The notes under the pieces were generated by a model that made no database searches, was not told the DNA's origin, and worked only from the letters and a program-made list of their open reading frames with translations. A stretch of DNA of 32,000 nucleotides from Vulcanisaeta distributa DSM 14429 (lineage in GTDB: Archaea; Thermoproteota; Thermoprotei; Thermoproteales; Thermocladiaceae), in contig NC_014537.1 of NCBI RefSeq assembly GCF_000148385.1, positions 2,010,001 through 2,042,000 on the forward strand, in the 5' to 3' direction. Below, piece after piece: positions 9,148-26,359 of the stretch; the stretch's first letter is position 1; every line of letters starts with the position of its first letter. The translations under genes and the position numbers were made by a program.

Positions 9148-9251
9148 AACTCACGTATTTTTAAGTATAACCAATTGACATCCTTCTATATGCAGTATTT
9201 AAGGTCCTTAACCATGGTGGTAATGCAAATTAAGTTGGTCCTTAAGACACC

Positions 9252-9755
9252 GTGATGGGGCTGGTACTACTCTATACCGGTGATGGTAAGGGAAAGACAA
9301 CGGCGGCGCTGGGGCTCGTCCTAAGGGCGGTTGGTCACGGCTATAGGGTCGTGATTGCCCACCTAATGAAGACCTTGATATACAGGGGTGAGTACGTCGG
9401 TGAGTACCTTGCAATTAAGAAATTCCTTGGTGATTACGTCGACATCTACTCACTGGACCCGGACCAGCACTTAACGCCTAGGGACGTGCTCAGGGCGGCG
9501 CTTGATAGGGCTAGGGAGGTTAAGCCCTTCCTACTGATACTGGATGAGGTCAATAATGCGGTGGCCAATGGCTATCTAACGGCTGATGAGGTCATTAATG
9601 GCATTAGGTCACTACCGCCTGAGGTTAATGTGGTGTTGACGGGTAGGGATGCGCCTAGGGAGTTCATGGAAATAGCCGACCTAATAACGATTATGGAGTC
9701 AAGGAAGCATTACTTCGATAGGGGTATAGTCGGTGTAAGAGGTCTGGAATGGTAA
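9252..9755 (+). CDS. cobA: Cob(I)yrinic acid a,c-diamide / cob(I)alamin adenosyltransferase (CobA/CobO/BtuR type)
   Basis: 167 aa. It has the P-loop-like YTGDGKGKTTAALGLVLRAVGHG and the downstream ILDEVN motif characteristic of the CobA family. Confidence 0.8.
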   Translation: MMGLVLLYTGDGKGKTTAALGLVLRAVGHGYRVVIAHLMKTLIYRGEYVGEYLAIKKFLGDYVDIYSLDPDQHLTPRDVLRAALDRAREVKPFLLILDEVNNAVANGYLTADEVINGIRSLPPEVNVVLTGRDAPREFMEIADLITIMESRKHYFDRGIVGVRGLEW

Positions 9756-9787
9756 TATTCTTTAATTCCCCACAAAGCCATTAACCA

Positions 9788-10582
9788 ATGCCAACACTGA
9801 AGTTTAGGGATGATAGGCCCACGCTCATCGGCGTTGTGCACTTACCGCCATTACCAGGCTCTATTAGGTATGGTGGACTGGACATCAGCACGATCGTGGA
9901 CTTCGCCGTTAGGAATGCCAGGGTGCTTGATGAGGCTGGCTTTGATGCCGTGATACTCGAGAACTACAACGATTATCCATTCAGGGTTAGGGTTAGGGAG
10001 GCTGAGACCATAGCCTCCATGGCGATAATAGCCAGGGAGGTGGTCAGGTCGGTGAATATACCCGTGGGCATCAACCTACTGAGGAATTCCGGCCCAGAGG
10101 CAGCCGCGATAGCAGCCGTGACCGGGGCATCCTTCATTAGGTCAAACGCCTACTGCGAGGCGGTGGTGAGTGTCGAGGGGTTGATAGAGCCGGTGGCCAG
10201 GGAGGTCCTCGAGGTAATGACGAGGCTCAACACAAAGATCACGGTGCTCGCCGACATATTCGTTAAACACGCAAGCCCACTGCACAGGATGACCATTGAG
10301 GACGTGGCCAGGGACTGCGTGGAGAGGGCCCTGGCCGACGCACTCGTGATCACGGGACCAAGGACCGGTGAACCACCAGACCCACTACTCCTTAGGCGCG
10401 TCGTTAAGGCGATGAATGCCAAGGTACTCGTGGGAAGCGGCATAAACCCAAATAATATAGGCGATTACAGGGAGGCCCACGGCTTCATAGTGGGCACATA
10501 CCTAAAGGACGAGGAAGGACAAATAGACCTGGCAAAGGCCAGAAACATGGTAAACGCAGTAAAGGCATTAACAAAGCCGTGA
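9788..10582 (+). CDS. BtpA/SgcQ family TIM-barrel protein
   Basis: 264 aa. The N-terminal LIGVVHLPPLPGS motif, NYNDYPF and the overall length match the BtpA family. Confidence 0.7.
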   Translation: MPTLKFRDDRPTLIGVVHLPPLPGSIRYGGLDISTIVDFAVRNARVLDEAGFDAVILENYNDYPFRVRVREAETIASMAIIAREVVRSVNIPVGINLLRNSGPEAAAIAAVTGASFIRSNAYCEAVVSVEGLIEPVAREVLEVMTRLNTKITVLADIFVKHASPLHRMTIEDVARDCVERALADALVITGPRTGEPPDPLLLRRVVKAMNAKVLVGSGINPNNIGDYREAHGFIVGTYLKDEEGQIDLAKARNMVNAVKALTKP

Positions 10583-10615
10583 ATGAGTACCCACGACCCA
10601 GGAAATTGCATTACT

Positions 10616-10679
10616 TGTCAAAACTTGGACTGGAAGAGTGGAGGTAAGATTAATCTTACCTCCACTCTGCCTGCCCAAC
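10616..10679. repeat. 64-nt repeated element, copy B (palindrome 10635-10668)
   Basis: Identical to 5715-5778. It starts 34 nt after the stop of the upstream + strand CDS, and the flanks on both sides are unrelated to those of copy A. Confidence 0.9.
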
Positions 10680-10828
10680 CATCAACTCCTAATAATCATC
10701 CAGGCCCAGACCACTCTCACAAACAATTCACGACAATGCACTTAATCCTAGCCTGCTAATTATGTCTTAGCACTTCTTATTACTGACTTAAACAGAAGGG
10801 GATTAATTTTCGCTTAATTGATTTATTA

Positions 10829-11110
10829 TTAAAGCCTTGATATGATGTACAGTAATGAGATCGCGACTAGGTTTAGTACTGTAATCAGTAGTGTTGGTGC
10901 TGCGACCTCCATCCCAAGGCCCCAGGTGGACCACATGTAGTATATTGTTACCATTAGTATGCTTTCAACCAGGAGTATCACTGATATGGATAGTAGTATC
11001 TTACCTATTCGCGTAAAACCAACACTTACGTAATTCCTGAGGATCAATAACACGATTATTGTCTGTACAGCGGCAATCCCAATATCCACATACCATAGGT
11101 AGTGGGTCAT
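10829..11110 (-). CDS. Small membrane protein (3 TM)
   Basis: 93 aa and hydrophobic. Its start overlaps the stop of the upstream wHTH gene by 4 nt (ATGA), which suggests co-translation. Confidence 0.45.
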   Translation of the reverse strand: MTHYLWYVDIGIAAVQTIIVLLILRNYVSVGFTRIGKILLSISVILLVESILMVTIYYMWSTWGLGMEVAAPTLLITVLNLVAISLLYIISRL

Positions 11111-11487
11111 GGCTCACCACCCTCCTCCATCTCCTCCCTCTCGTTAATACCCAATATCCTCATGACATCCCTAATAAGGTCCCACCTCTTTTCAAGCTTA
11201 TCACTAATGAAGTATGGCGCCCCATAGCCGATATCTAACTTATTAACGAGCCCATACCTCTCAAGAAGCTCTAAGTGGTAAATCACGGTCCTGTAATTCA
11301 CGTTTAACACCCTGGCCAATTGATTAGGGTTCATGGGCCTTTTCTTAAGGAGTAATAGGATCTTGAGTCTCATTAAACCTCCACGGGAGCCGCCAAGCAA
11401 CCAAATAAGTATTTTCTTTAAGTCCCTCTCATATTCAACCATTAGGTACGTAACACTACCCGTCAATAATTTATAAGTTTTAAGCAT
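11107..11487 (-). CDS. ArsR-family winged-helix transcriptional regulator
   Basis: 126 aa with the HTH segment MNPNQLARVLNVNYRTVIYHLELLERYGLVNK. Confidence 0.6.
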   Translation of the reverse strand: MLKTYKLLTGSVTYLMVEYERDLKKILIWLLGGSRGGLMRLKILLLLKKRPMNPNQLARVLNVNYRTVIYHLELLERYGLVNKLDIGYGAPYFISDKLEKRWDLIRDVMRILGINEREEMEEGGEP

Positions 11488-11726: not shown

Positions 11727-13220
11727 TTAGCTACCCCACGTAGGTGTACTTGATGATGAGCTTGACGATGATGAAGATGATGAGTAACTCGAAGATGGCG
11801 TTGATGATGGCATCATGGTGCCTGTCAGGTTAGTGAAGCCGTGGATTGGCGCCACGAATACCCAGGGTACGGGCTTTATGAAAACCACATTCACTATGTA
11901 ATCATCGCCCACCAACCATGGGTTGGCAAAGGCGTAGTTGCCGCCAAGTAATGTCCCGTCTGGTAACTCCGTATAGCCTAGCCAGGTCCATGATGCCACT
12001 ACCTCCGTAAGCGCCATCATGCTGCTTGGGTTATAGAAGGCCTGCGGTGGTAGGAAGGCGATGGTTATCACGGGTGTTGGGGAGCCTGAGGCGTTTACGA
12101 AGGTGTATCCTGGGCTTATCTCATTATTCACTGCGAAGGCGTATGAGAATATTGGCCAGTATATGGTGCCACTCTCATTTAGGTAGACTGGGTTGTAAAC
12201 TGCTTGATACACCAGGCTGAAGTTGTAAGTACTGAGTATTTGGCCGCTGGGCGTCTTAACGTAGGTGCCGGGTGGTATGACCGCCAGTAGGTTGCCCACG
12301 GCGACGGCGCCGCCCTGTGTCGCATTCACGGTTATCGTGCCTATGCTAACGGGTACTAGCTCCGGCTCCATTGTCGTTACTTCAGTGCTATTTGGTGTGG
12401 TCTCTGAGGTGTATACCGTCATCGACATTGCCGGCATGCCCGTGTACGCGAAGATCCAGGGCACCGGCTTAACGAATTGGTAGTTCACGAATATGCCAGA
12501 GCCAACATACACCCAGTTGTCTGGGAATGCGTAGTGGCCGCCGACCAACGTGCCGTTTGGCTCCTCAGTGAACCCAAGCCATGTCCAGGTGGTCCACGTA
12601 CTCGGCATCCTCACCACGGTAATTATTGCCTGCGGCTTACCCTCCTGATTAACGAATGTATAGCCCGGTGATACCTGCCCATTAACGGCATAGGCGAAGG
12701 CGTAAATTGGCGGTGAACCTCCCATGCCCATCTCCATGGGTGTTGGCCCGACATTCTCCAGCATGTAGTCAATTATTGAGAAATTATACGTACTGAGCAT
12801 CTGCCCGCTTGGTGTCTCCACGTACGTGCCCGGCCTAATCACGGCTATTATGTTGCCAAGCCTAACCGTAGCTCCTTGTGCCGCGTTTACGGTGACCGTC
12901 GCCTCACCAATTGGTATTAACTCTGGTTGCATCATGCCCATACTTGAGTTGGACATGCCCTCTAATGATTGGTATTGGCTTTGTAGGCTCATATACTGGT
13001 TCTCCAGGTTTGTGTAGTTTGTCATTAGGCTTGAGTACTCGCTCTCCAGGGTCTCATACTTACTCTGTAACTGCTGGTATTGGCTTTGAAGTGCCATGTA
13101 CTTACTGGCCATTGATGCAGTGGTTGAGTATAGGTAACCCACATACCCCAGTCCCGCCGCGAGTATTACCACCAGTATTACCAGTCCTATTGTTAGTGTG
13201 TTCATCAACCACGTACTCAC
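11727..13220 (-). CDS. Membrane-anchored extracellular protein: N-terminal TM helix, Q/Y/S-rich coiled coil, two tandem beta-rich domain repeats, poly-Ser tail
   Basis: 497 aa with an N-terminal TM helix LTIGLVILVVILAAGLGYVGYLY. A periodic segment follows: KYMALQSQYQQLQSKYETLESEYSSLMTNYTNLENQYMSLQSQYQSLE. Two homologous blocks of about 170 aa start PELIPIGEATVTVNAAQG and PELVPVSIGTITVNATQG and end KPVPWIFAY and KPVPWVFVA. The tail is SSSYSSSSSSSSSSSSTPTWGS. Confidence 0.6.
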   Translation of the reverse strand: MSTWLMNTLTIGLVILVVILAAGLGYVGYLYSTTASMASKYMALQSQYQQLQSKYETLESEYSSLMTNYTNLENQYMSLQSQYQSLEGMSNSSMGMMQPELIPIGEATVTVNAAQGATVRLGNIIAVIRPGTYVETPSGQMLSTYNFSIIDYMLENVGPTPMEMGMGGSPPIYAFAYAVNGQVSPGYTFVNQEGKPQAIITVVRMPSTWTTWTWLGFTEEPNGTLVGGHYAFPDNWVYVGSGIFVNYQFVKPVPWIFAYTGMPAMSMTVYTSETTPNSTEVTTMEPELVPVSIGTITVNATQGGAVAVGNLLAVIPPGTYVKTPSGQILSTYNFSLVYQAVYNPVYLNESGTIYWPIFSYAFAVNNEISPGYTFVNASGSPTPVITIAFLPPQAFYNPSSMMALTEVVASWTWLGYTELPDGTLLGGNYAFANPWLVGDDYIVNVVFIKPVPWVFVAPIHGFTNLTGTMMPSSTPSSSYSSSSSSSSSSSSTPTWGS

Positions 13221-13382: not shown

Positions 13383-14726
13383 TTAGATGTAGCTCTTAAC
13401 CCCCTTCATACCCAATGCATTCTCAAGCATCCTCTTTGCCGTGTAGTATCTCCTACAGTCTGGGCATAGGTACAGCCACTCCGGGTCACCCTTAATGCCC
13501 AGCCTAACCTTCGTAGCCATTATATGCCTCCTGGTATCGAAGGGTCTACCACACATTTTACAGGTGATCACCTCGTCGTAGACCACGTCAGTGCTGTCGC
13601 TCATTGGGAATTCCTTAGCCCTATCAACGGTTATTGCCTTCTCAGGGCATAACCTCGCGCAGTAGCCACAGCCAATGCACTTGAGGTTATTGAGCTTAAG
13701 CACTGTCTTATTACCATCCCTACCAACGTCAAATGCCCTCTCGGGGCACTTGGCAAAGCATACGCCACAGAATGAGCACTTAACATCATCCACATGGACA
13801 CTAAATATCTTAAGTAATTCATTGGCTACTCCCGTGGTCCTTGGTCTAAGTCTCGTTAATGCCTTAATATAGTCATTACGCCTAATGCCCATGTAGATCA
13901 TCCCCTCACCCACTTCCTCGCCGCCAATCATTGACAATGCACCATCCTCAGTGATGCTTAGCTTGAACGACTCCGTGAATGCATTAATCAATCCCTTGGC
14001 ATAGTCAGCACCACCCAACTTACATGACTGGTCGGGGCACTCAACACCCACCTCAAGGGACTTGGCAAGCGCCATTGCCACCCACTCGGGACTGACTGAG
14101 TCGATGCACGGCACCCTATAGATGTACTCACCGTCCCTAGACTCCCTGGTGTTCAATGGGCATGTGAATGTAATCCTCCTAATACCCCTCACATTATTCA
14201 ACTTATTAAGTAGGGCTACGTACTCATTATCGTCAGCGCCCACCATTGCCAGGGCACCGGTTGGGCACCTCGACACGCATAGGCCACATTCAATGCACGC
14301 GCTCTCATTGATAGTGACCCTATTATTAACTATGGATATTGCATTAGCCGGGCATGCATTGACGCACTCACCACAGCCAAACCTAGCCCTACATGCGTTT
14401 TCGAAGTATGTGGGTATGTTTTTCTCAACAACCTTGGTGACCCTACCCATCAGCAACTCCCTCCTGCTAATGGGGCCTTCAACAGCCACCTCCTTAGTGG
14501 TGACCCTCCTGGCCATTAACTGCGCCTTCAGCGCCTCCAACTCCTCATTACTCGGTGACCTGAGTATGTATATGTTCATTGGGTGTTTTCCCTGGACATT
14601 GACATTACCCAGCTTCCTGAGGACTATGATTACGGGGCCATCATGATCCTTAACCCTACTCAACTCCTCATCACTTGGGTCCTCGAGGATCAATAACCTA
14701 CCCTCCTCACTCACCACCATAGGCAT
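13383..14726 (-). CDS. Cytoplasmic polyferredoxin (four CxxCxxCxxxCP motifs) with C-terminal zinc ribbon, SreD-like accessory protein of the molybdoenzyme operon
   Basis: 447 aa. The four motifs are CGECVNACP, CIECGLCVSRCP, CSFCGVCFAKCP and CIGCGYCARLCP. A Cys-containing insert of about 150 aa separates the two ferredoxin pairs. The C-terminus reads CKMCGRPF...CPDCRRY. There is no signal peptide, and the gene overlaps the upstream gene by 20 nt. Confidence 0.7.
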   Translation of the reverse strand: MPMVVSEEGRLLILEDPSDEELSRVKDHDGPVIIVLRKLGNVNVQGKHPMNIYILRSPSNEELEALKAQLMARRVTTKEVAVEGPISRRELLMGRVTKVVEKNIPTYFENACRARFGCGECVNACPANAISIVNNRVTINESACIECGLCVSRCPTGALAMVGADDNEYVALLNKLNNVRGIRRITFTCPLNTRESRDGEYIYRVPCIDSVSPEWVAMALAKSLEVGVECPDQSCKLGGADYAKGLINAFTESFKLSITEDGALSMIGGEEVGEGMIYMGIRRNDYIKALTRLRPRTTGVANELLKIFSVHVDDVKCSFCGVCFAKCPERAFDVGRDGNKTVLKLNNLKCIGCGYCARLCPEKAITVDRAKEFPMSDSTDVVYDEVITCKMCGRPFDTRRHIMATKVRLGIKGDPEWLYLCPDCRRYYTAKRMLENALGMKGVKSYI

Positions 14727-15381
14727 CCCTCACAGCCTTAATGACCTCCCTGTCCTGGACCACGAAATCCCTCGTGAAGTTGAGGAGGAGCTTGAAGTAG
14801 TCCGTCCTCACGAGCTTTAGCGACGTGCTCACGAATATTGGTACCCAATTAATTAAGTGATTATTTATGAAGTAGTCCTCCTCCTCAACGTACTTAACCG
14901 CACTACTCCAATCGTCATACTCCTTATACGCCAGGAAGCTCATGAAGGCGAACTCAACGGCAATATGGTCACCCCTCAAGTCCCTGAAGTCCTTATTAAC
15001 GACTAGGTTATAATCAGCGTAGATCCTCTTGAGGGTTATTTCAGTGTTCATATCGAGATAGCCGGTGTGGGTGTAGCCCTCATACGGTATTGCGCCATAA
15101 TCAACCCTCGTGAAGTCTACCTGTATTGGTGTTAATGCATTATAATCATTCACATTCTCCGCAAGACCCAACAGCTTAATTAAGTCATTCATTGACGGGT
15201 ACAGACCAACCAGGACCCTTGCCACATCCCTAACCCTACCAATCCTCGACTTAATGAGCCTCTCAAAGTCACTGAGCCTATACGGGTATATGTAGGATGA
15301 GGCTAAGAAGTCGTAAATGATGGAACGAGAAAAGGCGAGTGATTTTAAGGCCTGTGGGTCTAGGCTCTCCATATTAATCAC
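14707..15381 (-). CDS. TorD/DmsD/NarJ-like molybdoenzyme maturation chaperone
   Basis: 224 aa, all-helical and acidic. The call rests on its position between the Fe-S subunit and the polyferredoxin, with an N-terminus SRSIIYDFLASSYIYP like that of redox-enzyme maturation proteins. The start is GTG at 15381 (overlapping the upstream TGA) or ATG at 15372. Confidence 0.55.
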   Translation of the reverse strand: MINMESLDPQALKSLAFSRSIIYDFLASSYIYPYRLSDFERLIKSRIGRVRDVARVLVGLYPSMNDLIKLLGLAENVNDYNALTPIQVDFTRVDYGAIPYEGYTHTGYLDMNTEITLKRIYADYNLVVNKDFRDLRGDHIAVEFAFMSFLAYKEYDDWSSAVKYVEEEDYFINNHLINWVPIFVSTSLKLVRTDYFKLLLNFTRDFVVQDREVIKAVRDAYGGE

Positions 15382-16169
15382 GTACCCTGGCCCTTGGCAT
15401 TACCCACGCCACCACCGCAATGACCACCAGTGGGTTTGACACCCTTAAGCTTCTGGAGCAGTGTTGGTAGGTCAGCGGCGCCTGTCCTCAATGCAAACTC
15501 CTCAGGCTCCTCCTTAGTGACTATCCTGGTTGATTCATTAGTCTGCACGCCCGGCATTATGTATAGGCTTGGCGGGTCCGTACCAAACTCTGGGCCCATG
15601 GGCACGGCACCCTTCCTCACCGCAGTCCTGTAGATTATGCTGTTGGGGTCGTCCATATCACCGAATATCCTGGCGCCAGCCGGGCAATTCCTAACACATG
15701 GTGGTATCCTCTCGTAAAGCGGTAGTGACTCGTCATAGATTCTGTCGATTGCCATCACGCACTTCTTACTGACCCCCTCCACTGGGTCGAATATTATGTT
15801 GCCGTATGGGCATGCATTCTCGCAATACCTACAGCCGATGCAAACCTCGTAGTTAATCACCACGACGCCATCCTCCTTCCTCTTGTATATAGCCCCCGTC
15901 GGGCATACAGTGACGCATGCGGGATTCCTGCAGTGGAAGCAGCTGATTGGCACACTGAATGTCTTTGTGTTTGGGAACTCACCAACCTCTACCTGCAGCA
16001 CCCTCATGAAGAATACTGACCATGGCGCCTTACCAGGCTCTGGACCCCATGGGTTTAGGTCAGTCATTGGACCGTAGCATCCGCTTGAGTGCCACTCCTT
16101 GCAAGCAAGCATGCATGCGTTACATCCAAAGCACTTGCTTAGGTCTGTGAGTATGGCTAGCTGGACCAT
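15378..16169 (-). CDS. Molybdoenzyme electron-transfer subunit, four-cluster ferredoxin (PsrB/DmsB/TtrB-like)
   Basis: 263 aa. The cysteine groups are CFGCNACMLAC, CFHCRNPACVTVCP, CIGCRYCENACP and CVRNCP, as in CISM beta subunits. Confidence 0.85.
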   Translation of the reverse strand: MVQLAILTDLSKCFGCNACMLACKEWHSSGCYGPMTDLNPWGPEPGKAPWSVFFMRVLQVEVGEFPNTKTFSVPISCFHCRNPACVTVCPTGAIYKRKEDGVVVINYEVCIGCRYCENACPYGNIIFDPVEGVSKKCVMAIDRIYDESLPLYERIPPCVRNCPAGARIFGDMDDPNSIIYRTAVRKGAVPMGPEFGTDPPSLYIMPGVQTNESTRIVTKEEPEEFALRTGAADLPTLLQKLKGVKPTGGHCGGGVGNAKGQGT

Positions 16170-16174
16170 TCAGG

Positions 16175-19100
16175 TCACCCCTGCCCGTTCTTTCTACCCT
16201 TCGGGTCCGTACCCGAGTTTGAGTTTGAACTGGATGGCGGCGTTGTGGCGCTTGAGAATGAGTAGCCCATGGAGTGCCTAATTGCCTCCTGGAACTGAAG
16301 CCACGTACTATTCACCTCATACCAGGTAATGCCCATCTCCTGCGGCGTCTTGTAGGCGTTGTAGTTGAACACCTTTATGTTCCAAGCCTCACTACCGACT
16401 ATTAACTTAGGCGGCGTCTTAACTATTGGATCGGCATTGCCCCAGGCTGAGTATGGCTTATCATTGGCAATCCTAACAATCTTAACCCTCAGATCACCCC
16501 AGGCAGTCTTACCACTAAATATGTCAAACTGAAGTGTTGGGTACTGCCCACTCTGCACAGCCTTTATTAAGCCATCCACGGTGTATTGGTCATTGGGTAC
16601 TCCACCCTGGCTATTCGCCCTAGTGTACACATATATGTCGTTAAACATGAAGCCCTTGGTCACCTCCAGGGCATTGGGCGGTAACGCCATCATTCCTGCC
16701 CTGGCATTCCTCGACTTCCAATAACCAACAACGCCCGGCGCTATGGCCTCAGTCAACTTAACCTGGCCTCTGGCGATCTCGCCACCCCTGCTTGTTAACT
16801 CAACCCAGTCACCATCCTTAATACCGTACTGGGCTGCGGTCTTCGGATTCATCCAAATCACTGAGTACGGTATTATCTGCCTCAACCATGGGTGGTGGTT
16901 CTCCCAGGTGTGGTAGAACCACGGCGTAGTCTTCCTATTGATAGTGGCCAGTGGGTACTCACTTGGTGGTGAGCCGTCAGGTGCTATCCAGTCCAGCGGC
17001 TCATACCATACGGCTATTGGGTGGTAGAACTGCTTAATAATCTGCGCCACGTGGCTACCCCACCAATCACTTGGTGGCGATGCATTCTTCTGGGCCAGCT
17101 GTAGGTACGACTGGTCGCCAGTCTTCTGATACATGTAGTAGAAGTATGCGTTCATGCCCTTCCACAGTCCGTAGGCTGCCAGTATGAACTTCATAATGAT
17201 CTCCGAATATATCGGTATAATCACTGGCTTAGCATACGGCATTAGGCTGACACTTGCGGCCCACTCCAGGTAGCCCTTATTCACGTGCCTATAGTACCTA
17301 ATCTCAAGCGGCAGTTCATAGTAGGCGAAGGCGTGACCCACGGTCTGAGTACCCGGTGAGACACCTGGTGGGTAAACTCCATTAGTGACCGGGATCTTCT
17401 GAAGCGGTGGATATGTATTGCTACTTGAGTATGCCGCCGCATTTATGAAGCCTGGGTATACGTACATCTTAATCTGGTCTGGGTTAGGCTCGCCCTTGCA
17501 GCATGACGTGCCGTCCTTACCCCTGGCCATATAAAGCACACCAACACCTGGCACGTACTGCCACTTCCACAGCCAGTCATACATTAGGTTGGGGTACATG
17601 GGCTCCCCGGTCTCGGTAACGAAGCCAGGCAACTGCAGCTTCTCGCCAAGCAGTATCTCGCCGTCGCTCCATGGCCTAACCTCCTTAAATAATGGCGGTA
17701 ATATGGGCCACTCAATGTTGTCAGCGGGCCCATGCACTGATGATGTCGGCCTATCCAGTAGACTGTGCTCACCATACCTCTCGAAGAACGTGGTATCGGG
17801 TATCACCAAGTCGACACAGGGTACTGAACCGCCGTAGAATGTATCAACCTGCGCCACGAACGGTATCCTATACCTACCGTCGGTGTCCTTCATCCTGAGT
17901 AGACCTAGGTCCTTATCAATGTCGTAGGCGTTATCCCAGTATGGGTTCGTTATGTGCCATAGCAGGAACTCAATCCTATAAGGCCACTCAAGGCCAGCAT
18001 CAATGTTAACGGCCGTGTAGTTCCTATGCACTGATAGCGGGAACTCCCAACTGAAGCCCCTATCTATCAGTAGTGGGTGCCCATTCTCGTCAATAACCAT
18101 CTGGTCGGGCGTGTAGACTATAGGCTTAGTCGTTATTTGCAAAGCCTTTGGATAAGGTACCTTCTCAACACTCAGTATCTGCACCGTGCCATCGTTGAGT
18201 ACTCTCTCCTGAACCATTGCACCGCCGACAACACCTATAAGCTTCTCGCCATTAGGTCCAGTGTATAGGCTTGGGTTAGAGTTGTAATCATCCTGAGTAA
18301 TGTTCATTCTTGGATGAGCCGGTGTCACATATGCTGGCCAGTAGTCACCATCGGGTACTGGCCATGGAGCCGGTGGCTTATAGGCGAAGCCTCCAGGGGT
18401 GTCCACGGCACCGACCAGGGTTAGCAGTAGTGCGAAGGCCCTAGCTGTTACGAAACCGTTGCTGTGGGCTGATATGCCCCTCATTATGTAGACTGAGAAT
18501 GGCGTACCTATGAAGTAGTCATGCTGCCTACCCAGGTAGTCAGTCCACTTAGCCGGTATAACAACCCTGCCATTATTAAGTAGGTTAACTATCTTCTGGG
18601 CGAGCTCCCTAATCTTATATGCCGGTGGCGTGCCCCAGGTCGCCTCAACATTCTCCGGGCTCCACTTATCCTGGAGCGCGATCTCCTTCAGTATGCTGAA
18701 TACTGTCCTAACATTGAGCGTTATCGTCTGGTCACTGTCCGGGGCCACTGGTATTGTTATTGAGCCTTGCCACTCAAGGACGGGCTCAACACCGTTCTGC
18801 CAGGGTATGTCAGTGAATGGGTATAAATTACCGTCGCTGCCCATGACTATTGGCACCCAATCACCATTCTTATTCTTCATCCTGGCGAAGAGGCCAACGT
18901 TGGAGGCCTGCGGCGGTATTATTGAGCCGTCTGGGTTTGTTATTACGAGCCAGGGTGCATTGGTGTACCACTTCAGGTAATCCTCGTCGATTGAGTGTAT
19001 TCCCTGCTCCCTCATCTTAAATAACTCATGAATTACTGACCAAACCACCATACCGTCAGTGCCAGGTATCACTGGTATCCACTCATTGGAAACCTGCGCG

Positions 19101-19966
19101 AAGTTACCGATTCTCTCAGGTGACATGTATATTATCTCACCGCCGTTGGTTATCACCTTCATCACCTCACGCCTCGTTATTGTCGGGAAGTGGTCCTGCG
19201 TCATACCGGCGATTATTAAAAGCTTCGTATAGTCACTGTCCCAGCCACCGTACTCCCACCAGGTACCGCCCATGGCGTAGGAACCACCTGACGCCACAGC
19301 CACTGCGCAGAAGCCTCCGTGTGCTGCCTGGTTTGGCGTGCCAAACATTGCGGCGAACCAAGTGTTCTCGGTTGGGTTATACTGGTCCCTGCCCGTGAAG
19401 TATACGAACTTGTATGGGCAGCACTCCCTAATTTGTTTAAGGCCTAGGAACCCGTACTTCCAACCCCTCTCCTGCAGGTATGATGCGTTGTCGCCATTAA
19501 CGAGTATGTCGAGCATGTCATCATAGGTTATCTCCACAAAGTCTCCCTCACACCTCTCGCTGGTTGGTACCCTAAGTAATGGTGACCTAAGCCTTGCTGG
19601 GCTTAGGTAGTGAAGCATTGTGGTTGCGCCTATGTCGCATGTGGCTCCCTGGTTCCTGGTAAATATTGAGCCCGCAATGTACCTGGGTAATTTAGTCGTG
19701 CCACTGATTATCACCTCAACGTTGCACCTACCCAGGCATCCATAGCATGTCGTGAATGCAACTACGTCACTCGCAATCTCCTCCTGGGCCAGCCTGCTTT
19801 CTTTGAATATTTGCCCAAAGACAAATGCCTCCCTACCCACGGTACCTAGGAACGCCGCTGCTGCAGCCGTTACACCGGCGATCTTTAGAAAGTCCCTCCT
19901 CGTTATTAACCAATCCCTCTTAACCTCCCTTTCCTGGGTAAGCTTTGTGGCTGTCTCCATGCCCAT
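16175..19966 (-). CDS. Molybdopterin (Mo/W-bisPGD) oxidoreductase catalytic subunit, Tat-exported, unusually large (Psr/Phs/Ttr/Sre-like)
   Basis: The track ORF of 1270 aa starts at 19987, but the likely start is ATG 19966 (MGMETATK), which overlaps the TGA of the anchor gene by 1 nt. It has a twin-arginine signal LITRRDFLKIAGVTAAAAA and an N-terminal FS0 motif CYGCLGRC...C. HGGFCAVAV provides a candidate Mo-ligand Cys, and the C-terminal tail is S/T/N-rich. Confidence 0.85.
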   Translation of the reverse strand: MGMETATKLTQEREVKRDWLITRRDFLKIAGVTAAAAAFLGTVGREAFVFGQIFKESRLAQEEIASDVVAFTTCYGCLGRCNVEVIISGTTKLPRYIAGSIFTRNQGATCDIGATTMLHYLSPARLRSPLLRVPTSERCEGDFVEITYDDMLDILVNGDNASYLQERGWKYGFLGLKQIRECCPYKFVYFTGRDQYNPTENTWFAAMFGTPNQAAHGGFCAVAVASGGSYAMGGTWWEYGGWDSDYTKLLIIAGMTQDHFPTITRREVMKVITNGGEIIYMSPERIGNFAQVSNEWIPVIPGTDGMVVWSVIHELFKMREQGIHSIDEDYLKWYTNAPWLVITNPDGSIIPPQASNVGLFARMKNKNGDWVPIVMGSDGNLYPFTDIPWQNGVEPVLEWQGSITIPVAPDSDQTITLNVRTVFSILKEIALQDKWSPENVEATWGTPPAYKIRELAQKIVNLLNNGRVVIPAKWTDYLGRQHDYFIGTPFSVYIMRGISAHSNGFVTARAFALLLTLVGAVDTPGGFAYKPPAPWPVPDGDYWPAYVTPAHPRMNITQDDYNSNPSLYTGPNGEKLIGVVGGAMVQERVLNDGTVQILSVEKVPYPKALQITTKPIVYTPDQMVIDENGHPLLIDRGFSWEFPLSVHRNYTAVNIDAGLEWPYRIEFLLWHITNPYWDNAYDIDKDLGLLRMKDTDGRYRIPFVAQVDTFYGGSVPCVDLVIPDTTFFERYGEHSLLDRPTSSVHGPADNIEWPILPPLFKEVRPWSDGEILLGEKLQLPGFVTETGEPMYPNLMYDWLWKWQYVPGVGVLYMARGKDGTSCCKGEPNPDQIKMYVYPGFINAAAYSSSNTYPPLQKIPVTNGVYPPGVSPGTQTVGHAFAYYELPLEIRYYRHVNKGYLEWAASVSLMPYAKPVIIPIYSEIIMKFILAAYGLWKGMNAYFYYMYQKTGDQSYLQLAQKNASPPSDWWGSHVAQIIKQFYHPIAVWYEPLDWIAPDGSPPSEYPLATINRKTTPWFYHTWENHHPWLRQIIPYSVIWMNPKTAAQYGIKDGDWVELTSRGGEIARGQVKLTEAIAPGVVGYWKSRNARAGMMALPPNALEVTKGFMFNDIYVYTRANSQGGVPNDQYTVDGLIKAVQSGQYPTLQFDIFSGKTAWGDLRVKIVRIANDKPYSAWGNADPIVKTPPKLIVGSEAWNIKVFNYNAYKTPQEMGITWYEVNSTWLQFQEAIRHSMGYSFSSATTPPSSSNSNSGTDPKGRKNGQG

Positions 19967-21015
19967 CACCCCCACCACGGACCCCACTGTGGTTGTGTGT
20001 TGTAGAATGGTGGTATTGGTGAGTGGAAGTACGCCGTGGCAATCACCGTGTACCTAAGCGAGTACCCACCAACCATAACGGCTATGAATATTATCACTAT
20101 CATTATAGCCGCGGTAGTGCTCAATGGGTTAATCCTCAATAGCGCTATTTCGAGTAGTAATGGTATGGCTATGCCTATTGATATAACCACGCCCCAGAAT
20201 AATGGTGCGTACATACCGAATAAAAGCTCGTAAAGGTTCAACCCAGCTAAGTAGTGGTTTGCCATGGCCACAGCTATGAACAACGCCCAGCCAAACCCCT
20301 CAAAAATCTCCGCAAGTAGGTCCAGCCAACTTAACTCATGCAGCACATGAGCTAACTCGCTTGTGCCTCCATCAGCCTTCACGGGCACTGTCGTTGTTAC
20401 AGGCTTCTCGAAAAACCTGGCAACTAATAGCGAGAATGCGGAGCCATATGCGAGACCTGATGATAGCCATAGCAGTGGTAGCACGCCATTCCACCAATAG
20501 GACTTGCCACCAGCTGCTGCGAATAGGAATGCTGTGTATACCGTAGCTGCTATGCCTGTTAGCATTATTAAGTAGTCAAGGACTAATTGTGCAGGTCTAA
20601 CGTACTTACCGAGGACGGCCCTCGCCAGTGATGGTATGTAGGTTATTGCCAGGTATATTATTCCCCAAATAACCATACCGCTTAGGAATAGGACACCCCA
20701 GTCCATCCATGATTGGGCGAGCCTACCATGTGGGTAGCCAATGAATATTATGTTGCCAGCCCTCTCAGGCCTACCTAAATCAATTATGAAGAAGGCTAGG
20801 GCAGCTAGTATGAAGATCCAGCCAGCGGTCATGTTTATCTTAACCATCCTACTGACCTTACCCCTAACATTATAAACCGCGGCCAGTAGCATCATCATGC
20901 TTCCAAGCGCCGTTAGGAAGACCGCAGCAGCGATTCTCCAGCCCCATATCATGTGATAGCCTGGCGGCATGTATGGGCCCCAGCCTGTCCAGCTAACTGG
21001 CCAGGGTAATGACAT
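19966..21015 (-). CDS. NrfD/PsrC-like polytopic membrane anchor (quinol-interacting subunit)
   Basis: 349 aa with about 8-9 TM helices and an NrfD-like N-terminus (HMIWGWRIAAAVFLTALG). It is the first gene of the operon. Confidence 0.75.
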   Translation of the reverse strand: MSLPWPVSWTGWGPYMPPGYHMIWGWRIAAAVFLTALGSMMMLLAAVYNVRGKVSRMVKINMTAGWIFILAALAFFIIDLGRPERAGNIIFIGYPHGRLAQSWMDWGVLFLSGMVIWGIIYLAITYIPSLARAVLGKYVRPAQLVLDYLIMLTGIAATVYTAFLFAAAGGKSYWWNGVLPLLWLSSGLAYGSAFSLLVARFFEKPVTTTVPVKADGGTSELAHVLHELSWLDLLAEIFEGFGWALFIAVAMANHYLAGLNLYELLFGMYAPLFWGVVISIGIAIPLLLEIALLRINPLSTTAAIMIVIIFIAVMVGGYSLRYTVIATAYFHSPIPPFYNTQPQWGPWWG

Positions 21016-21040
21016 CGGTTATTACCTAGTTACGTGTTGG

Positions 21041-21046
21041 ATATAA
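21041..21046 (-). promoter_or_regulatory. Putative TATA element for the molybdoenzyme operon (TTATAT on the coding strand)
   Basis: The element is centred about 28 nt upstream of the ATG at 21015, consistent with a leaderless transcript. A second GATATAA copy sits 24 nt further upstream (21064-21070). Confidence 0.35.
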
Positions 21047-21099
21047 GCGGTGCTTTCTCACTTGATATAAACAGCCGTAGTTATACCTGTGCCTAGGAA

Positions 21100-21891
21100 T
21101 TACCTACTTTCATATGAGTGAAAGGTTTTAAGTAGATTGCCCTTGTTCATTATGGACGTGAGTATTGGGCAGTTTAAACGTAGTGCATAACCATTAATCC
21201 TGCATTTAATGGCCACTGGCTTTACGAAAGGCTTTCCAGAACTCTCCTCTATTAGTAATGCAGCTTTACACCCATCATTTAGGGTAACCACTGGTAATAA
21301 TTCAAGTAATGCCTTGGCGATTACCCTCTCGGCCTTCCTAACGAGCTCTAGAGGTACATTCAGGGTCTCCGCAATTACTTGGTCTAGGGGCTTCATGCCT
21401 ATCCTTAGATTGTCAGGGAGCAGAACTAGGACAGTCCTACTTAAGCTACTGGCGCAGAAATCCTCAATCTTCCTACCCAGCCTAACCAATCCCTTAATTA
21501 ATAATGAAATGTATTCCTTAACCTCATCATCACTAAAATCCTCCAGTCCCCAGTCTTCTTTCAATTTCATAATCACGTACCTAAAAGCCGCATCATTAGC
21601 CCTAACAGCACCCGTTAAATAAGCAACAGATAGTAGGAAGGCGCCTCTAGCAGTAACCACGTACTGTCCCTTATTAACCTTCTCAACAAAACCCATCGAT
21701 AGAAGTTCTAACATCTTTCTATAAATTGTCGCTATGCTTAACCCAGTTACCTTGGATAGGTACGTTAATGACAATGTATTGATACCTCTTTGCATTAAGG
21801 CTAATTGAAACATCGAGACGATGAGAGTTTCAAGAATAAGTATATGAATTGAATCTAGCGAATCTTCCCTAACTAATAAATGAGGCATCAT
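21100..21891 (-). CDS. Winged-helix transcriptional regulator, paralog 1, with a Cys-containing C-terminal domain of unknown family
   Basis: 263 aa with the wHTH LSKVTGLSIATIYRKMLELLSMGFVEKVNKGQYVVTARG. It aligns with the neighbouring gene over its full length, including AERVIAKALLELLP, NDGCKA, AIKCRINGY and LNCPI. Confidence 0.6.
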   Translation of the reverse strand: MMPHLLVREDSLDSIHILILETLIVSMFQLALMQRGINTLSLTYLSKVTGLSIATIYRKMLELLSMGFVEKVNKGQYVVTARGAFLLSVAYLTGAVRANDAAFRYVIMKLKEDWGLEDFSDDEVKEYISLLIKGLVRLGRKIEDFCASSLSRTVLVLLPDNLRIGMKPLDQVIAETLNVPLELVRKAERVIAKALLELLPVVTLNDGCKAALLIEESSGKPFVKPVAIKCRINGYALRLNCPILTSIMNKGNLLKTFHSYESR

Positions 21892-21950: not shown

Positions 21951-22700
21951 TTACTCGTTAAATGCCTTATGAATTAATGATAAGGCTACAGGGCAGTCAC
22001 TATTAAGCGAATAGCCCCTAATCCTACATTTAATGGCGAGTATTACCGGCGAGACCCTAATCGACTGGTCCCCAGCCAATACAACCACTGCCCTGCAACC
22101 ATCCCTTAAACGGATGCTTGGTAGGTAATCAAGTAGTGCCTTGGCGATTACCCTCTCGGCTTGCTTCACCTCATCAATACTCACACCCAGGTACTCGGCT
22201 ATTGAGTGGGTTAGAGAGATCCTACCGTTATTAATGCCGTCGGGTAATACGTAATAAACAGAATTACTAAGTGAATTAACATTGGCGTTTAATGGCGAGA
22301 GACCCGCCTTATTAAATCCTTTATATAGTAATTTTAAGTAACTAATTACCTCATTACGATCAAATTCCTCAAGGTCCCAATCCTCCCTCAACTTATCAAT
22401 GGCCAACTCAAAGACATCCTTATTTATGGAACCCCCATTACTTAGGTACATCATTGCAAGTAGTAACACGCCCTTAGTGGTTATTACGTAATGACCCTTA
22501 CTAACCCGCTCTATCAAGCCAAGATTCATCAGGTCGAGGGCCTTCCTATATGCTGTGGCTATGCTCATACCCGTACTCATCGAAATATAGTAAAGAGAAT
22601 CCAAATTCCTACTACAACGCCTTACCTTACCCTTAATGAGATGAAGAAGGAGTGCCTGAAGTATTAGTATGTGGTAATTATCTAGGTAGTAAATACTCAT
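21951..22700 (-). CDS. Winged-helix transcriptional regulator, paralog 2
   Basis: 249 aa with the wHTH ISMSTGMSIATAYRKALDLMNLGLIERVSKGHYVITTKG. The shared C-terminal motifs are AERVIAKALLDYLP, RDGCRA, AIKCRIRGY and SDCPV. Confidence 0.6.
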   Translation of the reverse strand: MSIYYLDNYHILILQALLLHLIKGKVRRCSRNLDSLYYISMSTGMSIATAYRKALDLMNLGLIERVSKGHYVITTKGVLLLAMMYLSNGGSINKDVFELAIDKLREDWDLEEFDRNEVISYLKLLYKGFNKAGLSPLNANVNSLSNSVYYVLPDGINNGRISLTHSIAEYLGVSIDEVKQAERVIAKALLDYLPSIRLRDGCRAVVVLAGDQSIRVSPVILAIKCRIRGYSLNSDCPVALSLIHKAFNE

Positions 22701-22998: not shown

Positions 22999-23547
22999 AT
23001 GACAGAAATAGTCAAATATATGGAAAAGACTGTGGAGGTATCTAGTGTTGAGAGGTTCTTGCCTATACTGAGGGTTACGTTGGGTTGGATGTACTTCTCT
23101 GCGTTCCTGAGGAGAACTGTTAATGTGCCTGCAAAGCTTAACCCATCATCCACTGCGTATGTTGGTGGTAAGTTGATAACGTTCTTGCCACATGCGTGGC
23201 AACCTGTTGTTGGGCAGCTTGAGTGGGTATTGCTACATCCGCACCTGCTTTACATATTCCTACTCTTCTTCACGGCTGTCGAGGGGATATTTGGCTTATT
23301 AATGATTCTTGGCTTCATGACGAGGCTCTCCGGGCTCGTAATAACCATACTAGCCTGGAGCATTGGGGCTGCTGGTGGTTGGTTGGGGCCTACGTGTGTT
23401 GATGAGTGGCAGATTGCGGCTGTTGAAGGCGCCGCCGCATTTATGTTCGTGTTTACAGGTAGTAGGTGGTTATCGATTGATCAGTACCTGGCTAAGAAGT
23501 ATCCAAGGGGCTTAAGGATATGGAGTGTGTACGTACCACTATGGTGA
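22999..23547 (+). CDS. doxD: DoxD-like membrane protein (DoxX/DoxD family, thiosulfate:quinone oxidoreductase subunit-like)
   Basis: 182 aa with 4 TM helices. The N-terminal [26 protein letters not shown] segment resembles the DoxD family as I remember it. The next gene has DoxA-like size and topology. Confidence 0.55.
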
Positions 23548-23557
23548 GGTGGTGAGT

Positions 23558-24064
23558 ATGGATAGGACAACCGCGCTTGCACTGTTGGGCTTCATAATCG
23601 CCACCGGGGTAACGATGGGTCTATACCAAATAAACTTTCAGGGATTCACCCACCTAACCAACTACTCAAAGACACCCGCTTACTCACTGGCTGGTACTCA
23701 ATTACTTGAGAATGGTACATTACTACTACACATCACTAGGGTGGCGGGTCCGGACACATACGGTGGATTCATAGTACTCGTACAGGTACTTTACCCAAAT
23801 GGTACCATAGCTTATGAATGGAACTCAACATACCTAGGCCACATACCCCAATACGACATCATAAATAAGTATAACCTACCAGGGCATTTAGTGCACTCCG
23901 ACGGCTTCGCCCTCGTGGTACCACTGGGCCAGTCTGCCATTGTTAAGTTATATGCACAAACAACATTCAGCCCAGGGACCTACATTGTCAGAGTTTACGA
24001 TGTTGATGGGCAATACGAGGCGTACGGAATTAAGTTCCAGGTATACGTAACAGTCAGCGGGTAA
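23558..24064 (+). CDS. doxA: DoxA-like protein (N-terminal TM anchor plus extracellular beta-rich domain)
   Basis: The track ORF starts at 23525. The ATG at 23558 is preferred because GGTGAGGTGGTGA lies just upstream as a ribosome-binding site and this start avoids overlap with doxD. The protein has one TM helix (ALALLGFIIATGVTMGLY) and several N-x-S/T sequons (NYS, NGT, NGT, NST). Confidence 0.5.
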   Translation: MDRTTALALLGFIIATGVTMGLYQINFQGFTHLTNYSKTPAYSLAGTQLLENGTLLLHITRVAGPDTYGGFIVLVQVLYPNGTIAYEWNSTYLGHIPQYDIINKYNLPGHLVHSDGFALVVPLGQSAIVKLYAQTTFSPGTYIVRVYDVDGQYEAYGIKFQVYVTVSG

Positions 24065-24130: not shown

Positions 24131-24607
24131 CTACTTAACTCCAATTACCTCCCTAACCTCATCAATCAACGGCCTTATGTACTTAACCCTCCTCTCAACC
24201 TCATCAATCTTTATCCTAACCTCGTGGAACCCGTTAACGTGTAGGAAATAAGCCTCAGCCCATGCCCTCTCCGCCACATCGCCTAGTTTCGAAGCCGCAT
24301 CATCGAGTAGGCTCACGGTCCATCTGCCCTTCTCTAGGGCTTCCCTGGCCTCATCGAGGTTTTTGGCAATGGCTAATGCCTTGATAGCCTCCTCCACAGC
24401 CTTATACAACTTCTCACTGGCCTGAACCACATCACCCCTACCGACAAAGTTAAGACCCTCACTAAACATGACCAAGGCCAACTCGGCATGAGCCTTAGCG
24501 GTGTCTGAGGGGTCTAGGTTGAGCTTTGCGGCTAGTACGTCTATTATGTAGTCAAGGTCTAACCCCCTTTTTCTAAGTGCTTCGATTAATGTCTGCGGTA
24601 TGCTCAT
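24131..24607 (-). CDS. PaREP1/PaREP8-family protein
   Basis: 158 aa and all-helical. The motif series SEKLYKAVEEAIKALA...KGRW...AWAEAYFLHVNGFHE matches the PaREP1 family pattern (EK.W.A...A.KA...LH.N.Y/FHE). Confidence 0.65.
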   Translation of the reverse strand: MSIPQTLIEALRKRGLDLDYIIDVLAAKLNLDPSDTAKAHAELALVMFSEGLNFVGRGDVVQASEKLYKAVEEAIKALAIAKNLDEAREALEKGRWTVSLLDDAASKLGDVAERAWAEAYFLHVNGFHEVRIKIDEVERRVKYIRPLIDEVREVIGVK

Positions 24608-25480: not shown

Positions 25481-26359
25481 CTACACCTTAGGCATGTTCC
25501 TATATATTACCTTACTCCATACGTACCCCGCCTCGAATAGTGCTATGAACATTATGAACCATAGTAGTGTGCTTATTAGTGTTGGGTCTGGGTTTATTAT
25601 GGCTATGGCCACGAGGACCCCGAAGTATATGTAGGGCCTATTCCTCGAGAGCATGTCAGGCGTTATTAAGCCGATTTGCGTCAGTAGCGCGATTATCACG
25701 GGCGTTTCAAAGAGGAAACCTGCGAAGAATAAGGTTGCAATGAACGTGTCCAGGAAGCCACTCGTGGTGAGCAAGTGCACGAAACCGAATAGGCAACTCC
25801 AGAATAGGCTTATCCTTAGGAAGGCTGGGAATACGAAGTAGTAACCAATGAACATGCCTAGGTAGAAGAGTATGGTTGCAACCCACACATACCTCCTAAC
25901 GGCTCTAAGCTCATGGGGGTAAAGGGCTGGCTTGATGTATTGGTAAATTTCATAAATTAGCACTGGTATTGTAACGAGGAGGGCAATAACTATGCTAAGC
26001 TCAACACTGAACACGAACGGCCCGAGTACGGTGGTTGATATTATGCCTATGGGCTTAGTGGAGTTGCCAATAACCACGTAACCACTGGCGCAGGATACCG
26101 ACTCCGCAGGCGCCATGATAAGGCTATATATGTAGTGCCTATAAACATAGGCTATTATTGGGTTGTACTCCATGGTGAAGAAGCCAATGACGACCTGGGC
26201 AATGTTATGACTATGTACATCGGGCATTGGCAACCAAAGGATTACGAACACCACAGCAAACACAATCAAAGCCCTCCTAAGCCTAACCCCAAGCTCACGG
26301 ATATGCTCCCAAAAAGGCAACTCCCTATCATAAGGCGGCCTATCCTCACTCATTATCAA
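25481..26359 (-). CDS. tatC: Twin-arginine translocase subunit TatC
   Basis: 292 aa with 6 TM helices and a TatC-like N-terminus, ELPFWEHIRELGVRLRRALIVFAVVFV. Confidence 0.85.
   Translation of the reverse strand: MIMSEDRPPYDRELPFWEHIRELGVRLRRALIVFAVVFVILWLPMPDVHSHNIAQVVIGFFTMEYNPIIAYVYRHYIYSLIMAPAESVSCASGYVVIGNSTKPIGIISTTVLGPFVFSVELSIVIALLVTIPVLIYEIYQYIKPALYPHELRAVRRYVWVATILFYLGMFIGYYFVFPAFLRISLFWSCLFGFVHLLTTSGFLDTFIATLFFAGFLFETPVIIALLTQIGLITPDMLSRNRPYIYFGVLVAIAIINPDPTLISTLLWFIMFIALFEAGYVWSKVIYRNMPKV

Follow-up and report, generated by a model that had tools for sequence, protein, structure and literature searches.

What does a five-gene molybdoenzyme operon encode in Vulcanisaeta distributa DSM 14429, an anaerobic archaeon of hot springs, and does it belong with the sulfur reductases (Sre) after which such operons are usually named? 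The operon occupies positions 13383-21015 on the minus strand of the window, the stretch of 32,000 nucleotides that we analysed (contig NC_014537.1, positions 2,010,001 to 2,042,000; coordinates below are those of the window). Many hyperthermophilic Crenarchaeota live mainly by sulfur respiration. Our preferred reading, to which we give an even chance, is that the operon encodes an outward-facing, membrane-anchored reductase that passes electrons from quinol to elemental sulfur (S0) or polysulfide, and that is the ortholog of Sre1 of Thermoproteus tenax. An earlier note on this DNA had described a complex iron-sulfur molybdoenzyme (CISM) without assignable substrate, perhaps an uncharacterised reductase.

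The five open reading frames (ORFs) given in that note were all present and tightly packed, as seen from the ORF list and its translations. They encode an NrfD/PsrC-type membrane anchor of 349 amino acids (aa) (19966..21015; Pfam NrfD, PF03916), a catalytic subunit predicted to bind molybdenum or tungsten bis-pyranopterin guanine dinucleotide (Mo/W-bisPGD) and carrying a twin-arginine translocation (Tat) signal (16175..19966, 1263 aa from ATG; Molydop_binding, TAT_signal), a four-cluster Fe-S electron-transfer subunit (15378..16169, 263 aa; Fer4_11), a system-specific chaperone of the TorD/NarJ/DmsD family (14707..15381, 224 aa; Pfam Nitrate_red_del), and a polyferredoxin (13383..14726, 447 or 445 aa; four Fer4 stretches). 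The gene order is C-A-B-chaperone-polyferredoxin, or C-A-B-E-D in Sre letters, as previously read. Pfam and NCBIfam searches, which the note had proposed as a check, supported all five assignments, and the domains of all five proteins match a CISM with an Sre-like accessory set.

Direct reading also confirmed the junctions previously described. The NrfD stop and the catalytic start share one base in TGATG (GGGTGATGGGC), the spacing between the catalytic (A) and Fe-S (B) genes is 5 nt (TGACCTGAATG), the Fe-S stop overlaps the GTG start of the chaperone gene (GTGA, with an ATG 9 nt further on), and the last two genes, for the chaperone and the polyferredoxin, share 20 nt, or 14 nt with the 445-aa start. 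The polyferredoxin of V. distributa DSM 14429 in the database has 445 aa and is 100% identical. The catalytic ORF extends to 19987, giving 1270 aa from the first GTG versus 1263 aa from the ATG at 19966; the shorter length is the one called in a V. distributa read assembly and in the homolog of Vulcanisaeta sp. JCM 16161. The entire locus was reproduced in a V. distributa contig derived from the Sequence Read Archive. Overlapping plus-strand ORFs (e.g., 14122-14646) were rejected as genes because they lie within conserved coding sequence of the opposite strand.

The closest published counterpart of the operon is found in T. tenax, where all five genes have orthologs in the same order, with identities of 77-80% for A, 85% for B, 60% for C, 50% for the chaperone, and 46% for the polyferredoxin. 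In the T. tenax genome, these genes sit at ~43-50 kb and are TTX_0045-0049, the sreC1-A1-B1-E-D cluster (sreA1B1C1DE) for which Siebers et al. (2011; PMC3189178) predicted an H2/quinol:sulfur reductase. The same study noted the Tat motif and predicted a short H2-quinone-sulfur chain with a single [NiFe] hydrogenase, and one source names the T. tenax anchor as a sulfur/polysulfide reductase subunit. The two loci share the Tat motif on the catalytic subunit and a homologous winged helix-turn-helix (wHTH) gene directly upstream. Unlike T. tenax, V. distributa has two copies of this candidate regulator and an adjoining doxDA pair; neither a second copy nor doxDA occurs within 10 kb of the T. tenax cluster. 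As a gene-for-gene ortholog by sequence comparison, the V. distributa operon is assigned to the published type as a further example of it. The operon type is thus not an unknown one, since it was published in 2011 and the T. uzoniensis ortholog (AEA11555) is already annotated as 'sulfur reductase, subunit A'.

The five-gene order is widely conserved. A scan of genome contigs with narrow peptide patterns yielded nine loci. Among the loci examined, the order anchor-A-B-chaperone-polyferredoxin was present in T. tenax and another five loci of Thermoproteus (one of them a short end fragment), in Vulcanisaeta AZ3 and a Vulcanisaeta/Caldivirga-type contig, in five Sulfolobaceae loci, and in one Desulfosporosinus metagenome-assembled genome and another bacterial contig. 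The sole exception was Hydrogenisulfobacillus, in which only the polyferredoxin gene has moved to the opposite strand. Because the same order recurs in the Thermoproteales, Sulfolobales, and bacterial loci, the arrangement is not a matter of chance; the conservation in related genomes that the earlier note had left to be checked extends to the Thermoproteales, the Sulfolobales, and some Firmicutes.

Motifs and fold identify the family of the catalytic subunit, whose residues are numbered here according to the 1263-aa form. Pfam detected Molydop_binding (E 8e-17), and the twin-arginine motif RRDFLK, followed by a hydrophobic stretch, was matched by Pfam TAT_signal (E 9e-6) and by TIGR01409 (18.5 bits, cut-off 16.7). 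Profile search thus bears out the Tat-exported Mo-bisPGD subunit that had been claimed, both in its domains and in its Tat motif. The PF00384 domain stayed under threshold in the V. distributa protein and was recorded for the related proteins P0003, P0004, and P0007-13 of the clade described below. The motif of the FS0 cluster, C74-x2-C77-x3-C81...C110, was invariant in the alignments. Cys220 aligned with Cys173 of Thermus thermophilus PsrA, which we take to be the Mo ligand of that enzyme. An AlphaFold2 model of residues 61-1250 (in the numbering of the 1270-aa ORF) had a mean predicted local distance difference score (pLDDT) of 89 and a predicted template modelling score (pTM) of 0.92. In Foldseek searches, the modelled fold matched ArrA, PcrA, and PsrA at E 1e-29 to 1e-33 with only 14-15% identity. 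It also matched Nxr and formate dehydrogenases, the whole set ranging from E 1e-24 to 1e-33 and from 11 to 15% identity, and none of these structure matches was a solved structure from the lineage of the catalytic subunit itself. By motifs and model, the subunit is a member of the Mo/W-bisPGD dimethyl sulfoxide (DMSO) reductase superfamily with a predicted MopB fold, and a bound Mo or W bisPGD and Fe-S clusters are predicted in the protein.

Its relatives form a compact family of long catalytic subunits of 1150-1260 aa, as found by a word-indexed search and cluster look-up. Identities were 90-96% with Vulcanisaeta and Caldivirga homologs and 77% with those of Thermoproteus. Sulfolobales homologs (Stygiolobus, Saccharolobus caldissimus, Acidianus hospitalis, Sulfurisphaera ohwakuensis) were 54-57% identical, and bacterial homologs of Firmicutes type were 48-53% identical, the one from Candidatus Hydrogenisulfobacillus being annotated as 'putative sulfite/sulfur reductase'. 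The next relative below this clade was a Desulfitobacteriaceae protein at 39%, followed by hundreds of proteobacterial proteins of 930-1000 aa (E ~1e-150), many of which are labelled SoeA by JGI. An exhaustive HMMER search of 1.84 billion representatives returned only 80 proteins at E <=1e-30; clustering at 50% identity reduces the whole long clade to one representative there. Searching plasmids with tblastn found SoeA-like megaplasmid genes at 440-530 bits and everything else at 71 bits or less.

In a neighbour-joining tree rooted with Escherichia coli DmsA, YnfE, and YnfF, and built without Psr, Phs, Ttr, and canonical Sre references, the long clade had a bootstrap support of 100 and its archaeal part 99. 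The SoeA-annotated proteins were the closest annotated relatives (36-38% identity, versus 21-23% with DmsA, YnfE, and YnfF), with a support of 48 for monophyly of the SoeA-like group, and a 1452-aa protein of Sulfolobus acidocaldarius type branched as a further sister. Cys220 is invariant across the long clade and the SoeA-like proteins. The RRxFLK motif was found in 12 of the 13 full-length clade members checked and in none of 38 SoeA-like proteins, relative to which the long clade has an extra signal peptide, internal insertions totalling ~142 aa, and an extended C-terminus, making it ~290 aa longer overall; the unusual size of the catalytic subunit had been remarked on before. Among solved structures, the best sequence match in a phmmer search of the PDB was PsrA (E 7e-14). 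No NCBIfam equivalog model reached its cut-off (PhsA, 76 bits against 694; TtrA, 72 against 1750; DmsA/YnfE, 72 against 778; ArrA, 51 against 1600), the TtrA model score being our comparison with Ttr in place of a Ttr sequence. On these comparisons, the catalytic subunit is placed in a separate clade of predicted Tat-exported proteins beside the SoeA/bacterial SreA lineage and far from PsrA, ArrA, and DmsA (14-22% identity). The earlier note had considered the enzyme unplaceable among known clades; it now has a place beside SoeA and bacterial SreA, distant from E. coli DmsA and from the structures of Psr and Arr. Nor does it nest in a biochemically characterised clade in the tree of SoeA-like proteins with DmsA, YnfE, and YnfF.

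The known systems nearest to the operon differ from it in consistent ways. The SoeABC enzyme of Allochromatium vinosum and the SreABC/SoeABC enzyme of Aquifex aeolicus are the closest annotated relatives (36-38%, E ~1e-150). The SoeA-like and V. distributa catalytic subunits have in common the FS0 motif and an HGGFC motif that holds the Cys ligand. However, the SoeA-like proteins have no Tat signal and would therefore face the cytoplasm. The soe operon that we examined has the order A-B-C with a DmsC-family anchor and no polyferredoxin or chaperone gene, whereas the V. distributa genes run C-A-B-E-D. In a genuine soeABC locus (contig L019), the membrane subunit (8650-9588) matched Pfam DmsC, whereas the V. 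distributa anchor matched NrfD, so the two lineages differ in anchor family besides orientation. The physiological direction of Soe is oxidative, and one SoeA-like relative lies in a tusA-soeA-soeB-soeC locus beside soxYZ and dsrE. The Aquifex aeolicus enzyme is cited in a passage of PMC4378227 as reducing tetrathionate, sulfur, and polysulfide. PsrABC of T. thermophilus (PDB 2vpw) resembles the V. distributa enzyme in its Tat-exported, Cys-ligated Mo-bisPGD subunit, its four-cluster subunit, and its NrfD-type anchor. However, PsrA has only 734-765 residues against 1263, is 14% identical over the structural alignment, and comes without a polyferredoxin.

The partner subunits fit a membrane-bound electron-transfer chain. 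The anchor matched Pfam NrfD at E 1.8e-25 and showed at least seven hydrophobic helices in a crude hydropathy scan; it is presumed to be a cofactor-less, quinol-oxidising subunit. The Fe-S subunit (Fer4_11, E 5.6e-21) is 83-85% identical to its Thermoproteus orthologs and has no signal peptide of its own. Three groups among its 17 cysteines, starting at C13, C77, and C110, fit cluster motifs, and the ligands of a fourth cluster would come from the remaining cysteines 137, 158, and 162. The chaperone matched Nitrate_red_del (E 4.3e-12) and, under the curated cut-offs, the NCBIfam models for TorD (E 9e-11) and for the chaperone of type II DMSO reductases (E 1e-10). The 24 cysteines of the polyferredoxin are arranged as two 2x[4Fe-4S] domains, four central cysteines, and a C-terminal CxxC...CxxC pair, and its likeness to the MvhB and FwdF polyferredoxins is limited to the Fer4 domains. 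No hydrophobic segment or signal was seen in the polyferredoxin, which is therefore predicted to be cytoplasmic.

From the gene content, motifs, fold, orthology, and conserved order described above, we infer an orientation, an electron path, a substrate, and a role for the polyferredoxin. Quinol from dehydrogenases on the cytoplasmic side would be oxidised at the NrfD subunit, and its electrons would travel along the four [4Fe-4S] clusters of B and then FS0 of A to the Cys-ligated Mo/W-bisPGD outside the membrane. At this outer-face centre, S0 or polysulfide would be reduced to H2S. The TorD-like chaperone would hold the Tat leader of the A precursor in the cytoplasm until the cofactors are inserted, and A and B would then be exported jointly through Tat, since B lacks its own signal. 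A tatC gene 4.5 kb from the operon (25481..26359, minus strand; Pfam TatC, E 1.7e-42) and the recurrence of RRxFLK in the clade support the Tat-dependent reading. The polyferredoxin would remain in the cytoplasm and, because NrfD has no haem, could not feed the outer active site; it most likely serves in maturation, as NapF does in E. coli, and not as part of the catalytic electron path. S0 or polysulfide is favoured as the substrate because of the interpretation given for T. tenax, the sulfur-respiring hosts, and the activity reported for the Aquifex enzyme. Thermoproteus, Vulcanisaeta, Caldivirga, Stygiolobus, and Sulfurisphaera are all sulfur respirers. Stygiolobus and Sulfurisphaera are listed as S0 reducers and are not among the listed holders of canonical sreABC (PMC8551704).

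How the operon relates to the Sre of Acidianus ambivalens bears directly on its name. This membrane-bound sulfur reductase was reportedly purified by Laska et al. in 2003, and to our knowledge it is the only archaeal membrane sulfur reductase that has been purified. The A. ambivalens SreABCDE set resembles that of V. distributa in comprising a Mo subunit with a Tat motif, an Fe-S subunit, an anchor, a polyferredoxin, and a NarJ/TorD-like chaperone (PMC3189178, PMC8551704), and the same chemistry is proposed for both, from quinol to S0 at the outer face. The parallel that the earlier note drew with sreABCDE therefore holds for the five components, together with its remark that the order differs (A-B-C-D-E in A. 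ambivalens). We compared A. ambivalens SreA with the long clade indirectly, by species lists, a list of SreC residues, placement in the literature, and gene order rather than by sequence alignment. The listed holders of canonical sreABC are A. ambivalens, A. brierleyi, S. solfataricus, and S. islandicus (PMC8551704; PMC5127849), and none of these four species contributed a protein to the homologs at least 39% identical or to the named members of two Sulfolobales clusters. Proteins of A. hospitalis, Sulfurisphaera, Stygiolobus, and S. caldissimus were present among those homologs, so canonical Sre and the long clade occur in different Sulfolobales species. The residue list of A. ambivalens SreC extends to Tyr389 (PMC8076601), and no offset fits it to the 364-aa Acidianus-like anchor of the clade (at most 5 of 22 positions); the two anchors differ in both length and residues. 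Archaeal SreA has been placed beside or within Psr/Phs (PMC10100899, PMC12949373), and a 2026 study makes Sre the sister of Psr/Phs/Srr (PMC12949373), whereas the V. distributa subunit groups on the SoeA/bacterial SreA side. When the polyferredoxin and the NrfD subunit served as protein queries, all matches were either from Thermoproteales or unrelated.

True orthology to the characterised A. ambivalens SreABCDE, with a rearranged gene order, is therefore improbable in our estimate. The identical five-component set would speak for such orthology, as would the 30-50% identity between the T. tenax and A. ambivalens operons given by the T. tenax authors (PMC3189178). However, the absence of the canonical sreABC species from the close homologs, the failure of the SreC residue list to fit, the different gene order, and the position of archaeal SreA near Psr/Phs all argue against it, the V. 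distributa subunit being 36-38% identical to SoeA-like proteins and matching PsrA only at E 7e-14, with 14% structural identity. The label 'Sre-like' is right for the composition of the operon and probably for its chemistry, and does not imply membership in the characterised Sre clade.

Several points weigh against assigning the operon to quinol-driven sulfur or polysulfide reduction. Indirect evidence, as set out above, suggests that the catalytic subunit is not close to the lineage of the purified A. ambivalens SreA. We found no report in the literature of any clade member having been purified, characterised biochemically, or tested genetically, and the sulfur-reductase label of the clade is based on operon composition only. 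The closest annotated relatives include the sulfite-oxidising enzyme SoeA. Members of the clade are also present in Saccharolobus caldissimus, the A. hospitalis group, and Hydrogenisulfobacillus, a distribution that fits a dedicated role in sulfur respiration less well; the A. hospitalis group and S. caldissimus are aerobic or facultative, and Hydrogenisulfobacillus is an aerobic H2 oxidiser. V. distributa respires thiosulfate as well, so the substrate is not fixed by the physiology of the host. Lastly, the linkage to doxDA points to thiosulfate or tetrathionate chemistry. In V. distributa, doxD (22999-23547, plus strand; Pfam DoxD, E 9e-57) and doxA (23525-24064, plus strand; Pfam DoxA, E 3e-40) lie upstream of the operon, divergent from it, and are of the thiosulfate:quinone oxidoreductase (TQO) type; DoxDA of A. 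ambivalens is a TQO. The pair adjoins the cluster in three arrangements, namely in V. distributa, in the Acidianus-like contigs L010-12 (4939-5969 in L010), and in Stygiolobus (contig L007, 14541-15574). DoxD is 71% and DoxA 63-65% identical between the two orders, higher than the enzyme subunits (55% for A, 33% for the anchor), and the linkage suggests co-transfer or a functional link. TQO genes have been reported absent from Thermoproteales populations (PMC3654217).

The main rival to the quinol:S0/polysulfide reductase reading accordingly keeps the architecture and changes the substrate to thiosulfate or tetrathionate, with the enzyme working together with DoxDA. In one such scheme, DoxDA at the quinone pool would convert tetrathionate and thiosulfate into each other, and the substrate of the molybdoenzyme would be either thiosulfate, yielding sulfide and sulfite, or tetrathionate. 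This role is plausible because doxDA flanks the cluster, because of the function of DoxDA in A. ambivalens, and because thiosulfate is among the electron acceptors of V. distributa and Caldivirga; the better conservation of DoxD and DoxA than of the enzyme subunits points the same way. T. tenax accepts thiosulfate (PMC3189178), and tetrathionate reduction by the related Aquifex enzyme is reported in the passage of PMC4378227 mentioned above. However, doxDA was not found in the fetched flanks of the Thermoproteus loci, the Caldivirga-type contig L021, and the bacterial loci, so the linkage is not general to the clade, and the scores of 72-76 bits for PhsA and TtrA are at background level. Stygiolobus, moreover, is an H2/S0 specialist. 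Overall, we regard this substrate as possible but rather doubtful. A reversal of direction appears considerably less probable: the enzyme would then be an outward-facing, Soe-like dehydrogenase of sulfite or another reduced sulfur compound, delivering electrons into the quinone pool. The SoeA labels of the nearest annotated relatives, one of them in the tusA-soeABC locus by soxYZ and dsrE, and the presence of the clade in aerobic hosts would favour oxidation, as would the sulfur-oxidation-type genes for DoxDA, TusA, and a flavoprotein resembling sulfide:quinone oxidoreductase (SQR) that flank the Sulfolobales loci. Against this, V. distributa, Thermoproteus, and Stygiolobus are anaerobes not known to have a high-potential acceptor for such electrons, and the whole clade is set off from SoeA by its orientation (Tat), the family of its anchor (NrfD instead of DmsC), and its accessory genes. 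Reduction of a non-sulfur oxyanion such as arsenate or selenate seems very unlikely. ArrA is the top structural match in the PDB, and uncharacterised enzymes of the DMSO family are on record for the Thermoproteales (PMC3654217). However, the ArrA match is at the level of the fold only (15% identity), the NCBIfam ArrA score is far below its cut-off, and no ars or arr genes form the context; an ArsR-type gene 1.9 kb downstream is not conserved in the other loci. Identity as an arsenate reductase was rejected because the similarity to ArrA is confined to the fold.

The usual 'Sre' label of this operon and its orthologs was given by analogy, and our comparisons point to a separate lineage, closer to SoeA and bacterial SreA. 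If this is true, functional annotation of the sulfur cycle in hot-spring metagenomes, which counts 'SreA-like' genes, pools two or more enzyme lineages, including this one, whose function is so far only predicted. We would go further only tentatively, and short of an even chance, in proposing that the Tat-exported long clade is a distinct extracellular sulfur-compound oxidoreductase rather than another canonical Sre, and the real terminal reductase of the Thermoproteales and of the Sulfolobales that reduce sulfur without canonical sreABC (Stygiolobus, Sulfurisphaera). In Vulcanisaeta and the Sulfolobales, it would form a thiosulfate/tetrathionate/sulfur module with the co-inherited DoxDA, and the polyferredoxin would be a dedicated maturation factor. 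The operon type itself was already known, having been described in 2011 and annotated in public genomes, and is not a new kind of system. What our analysis adds is the placement of the Tat-exported long clade next to bacterial SreA and SoeA and, probably, apart from the canonical Sre of archaea, together with the cross-domain five-gene order, the conserved upstream wHTH gene that is duplicated in V. distributa, and the doxDA linkage. For studies of expression or of the proteome, the operon offers a well-defined target.

Upstream of the NrfD gene, an 84-nt gap (21016..21099, minus strand) contains TTTATATC and the TATA-like CTTATATCC, the latter ~30 nt before the ATG, and is a probable promoter of the operon. 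A promoter and terminator scan with a bacterial sigma-70 model gave results at chance level; this model does not apply to an archaeon. Beyond the gap lie the two wHTH genes, one encoding 263 aa (21100..21891, minus strand; weak TrmB/IclR HTH matches) and its paralog 249 aa (21951..22700, minus strand; 44% identity, BLASTP E 9e-60). In both proteins, the winged HTH lies near residues 38-78 and cysteines at the C-terminus are conserved; neither has a Pfam match above threshold. A single homolog, matched by both V. distributa paralogs, immediately precedes the anchor gene in each of the six full Thermoproteus loci. In L021, an unannotated 255-aa gene occupies this position. The two paralogs are likely operon-specific regulators of an undescribed family, a candidate function suggested by their position and conservation.

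Further genes around the operon include a PaREP1-family gene between doxA and tatC (24131-24607, minus strand; Pfam E 7e-30) and, downstream, a gene for a 497-aa protein with weak coiled-coil-type matches only and no family matches (11727-13220, minus strand) and the ArsR-type HTH gene (11107-11487, minus strand). Neither of the two downstream genes is kept beside the cluster in the other loci compared. In L021, moeA and a mobA-like NTP_transf_3 gene (8647-10788) directly follow the polyferredoxin gene on the opposite strand, which is consistent with a local supply of the bisPGD cofactor.

A related cluster occurs in S. acidocaldarius SUSAZ (contig L020, 6001-14617), a species that is an obligate aerobe. 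Its 1452-aa catalytic homolog has 30% identity by BLASTP, 37-38% over conserved columns, and no Pfam match. It is followed by an Fe-S subunit, a chaperone, a 336-aa protein, and a 490-aa Fer4 protein, and an NrfD gene lies on the opposite strand.

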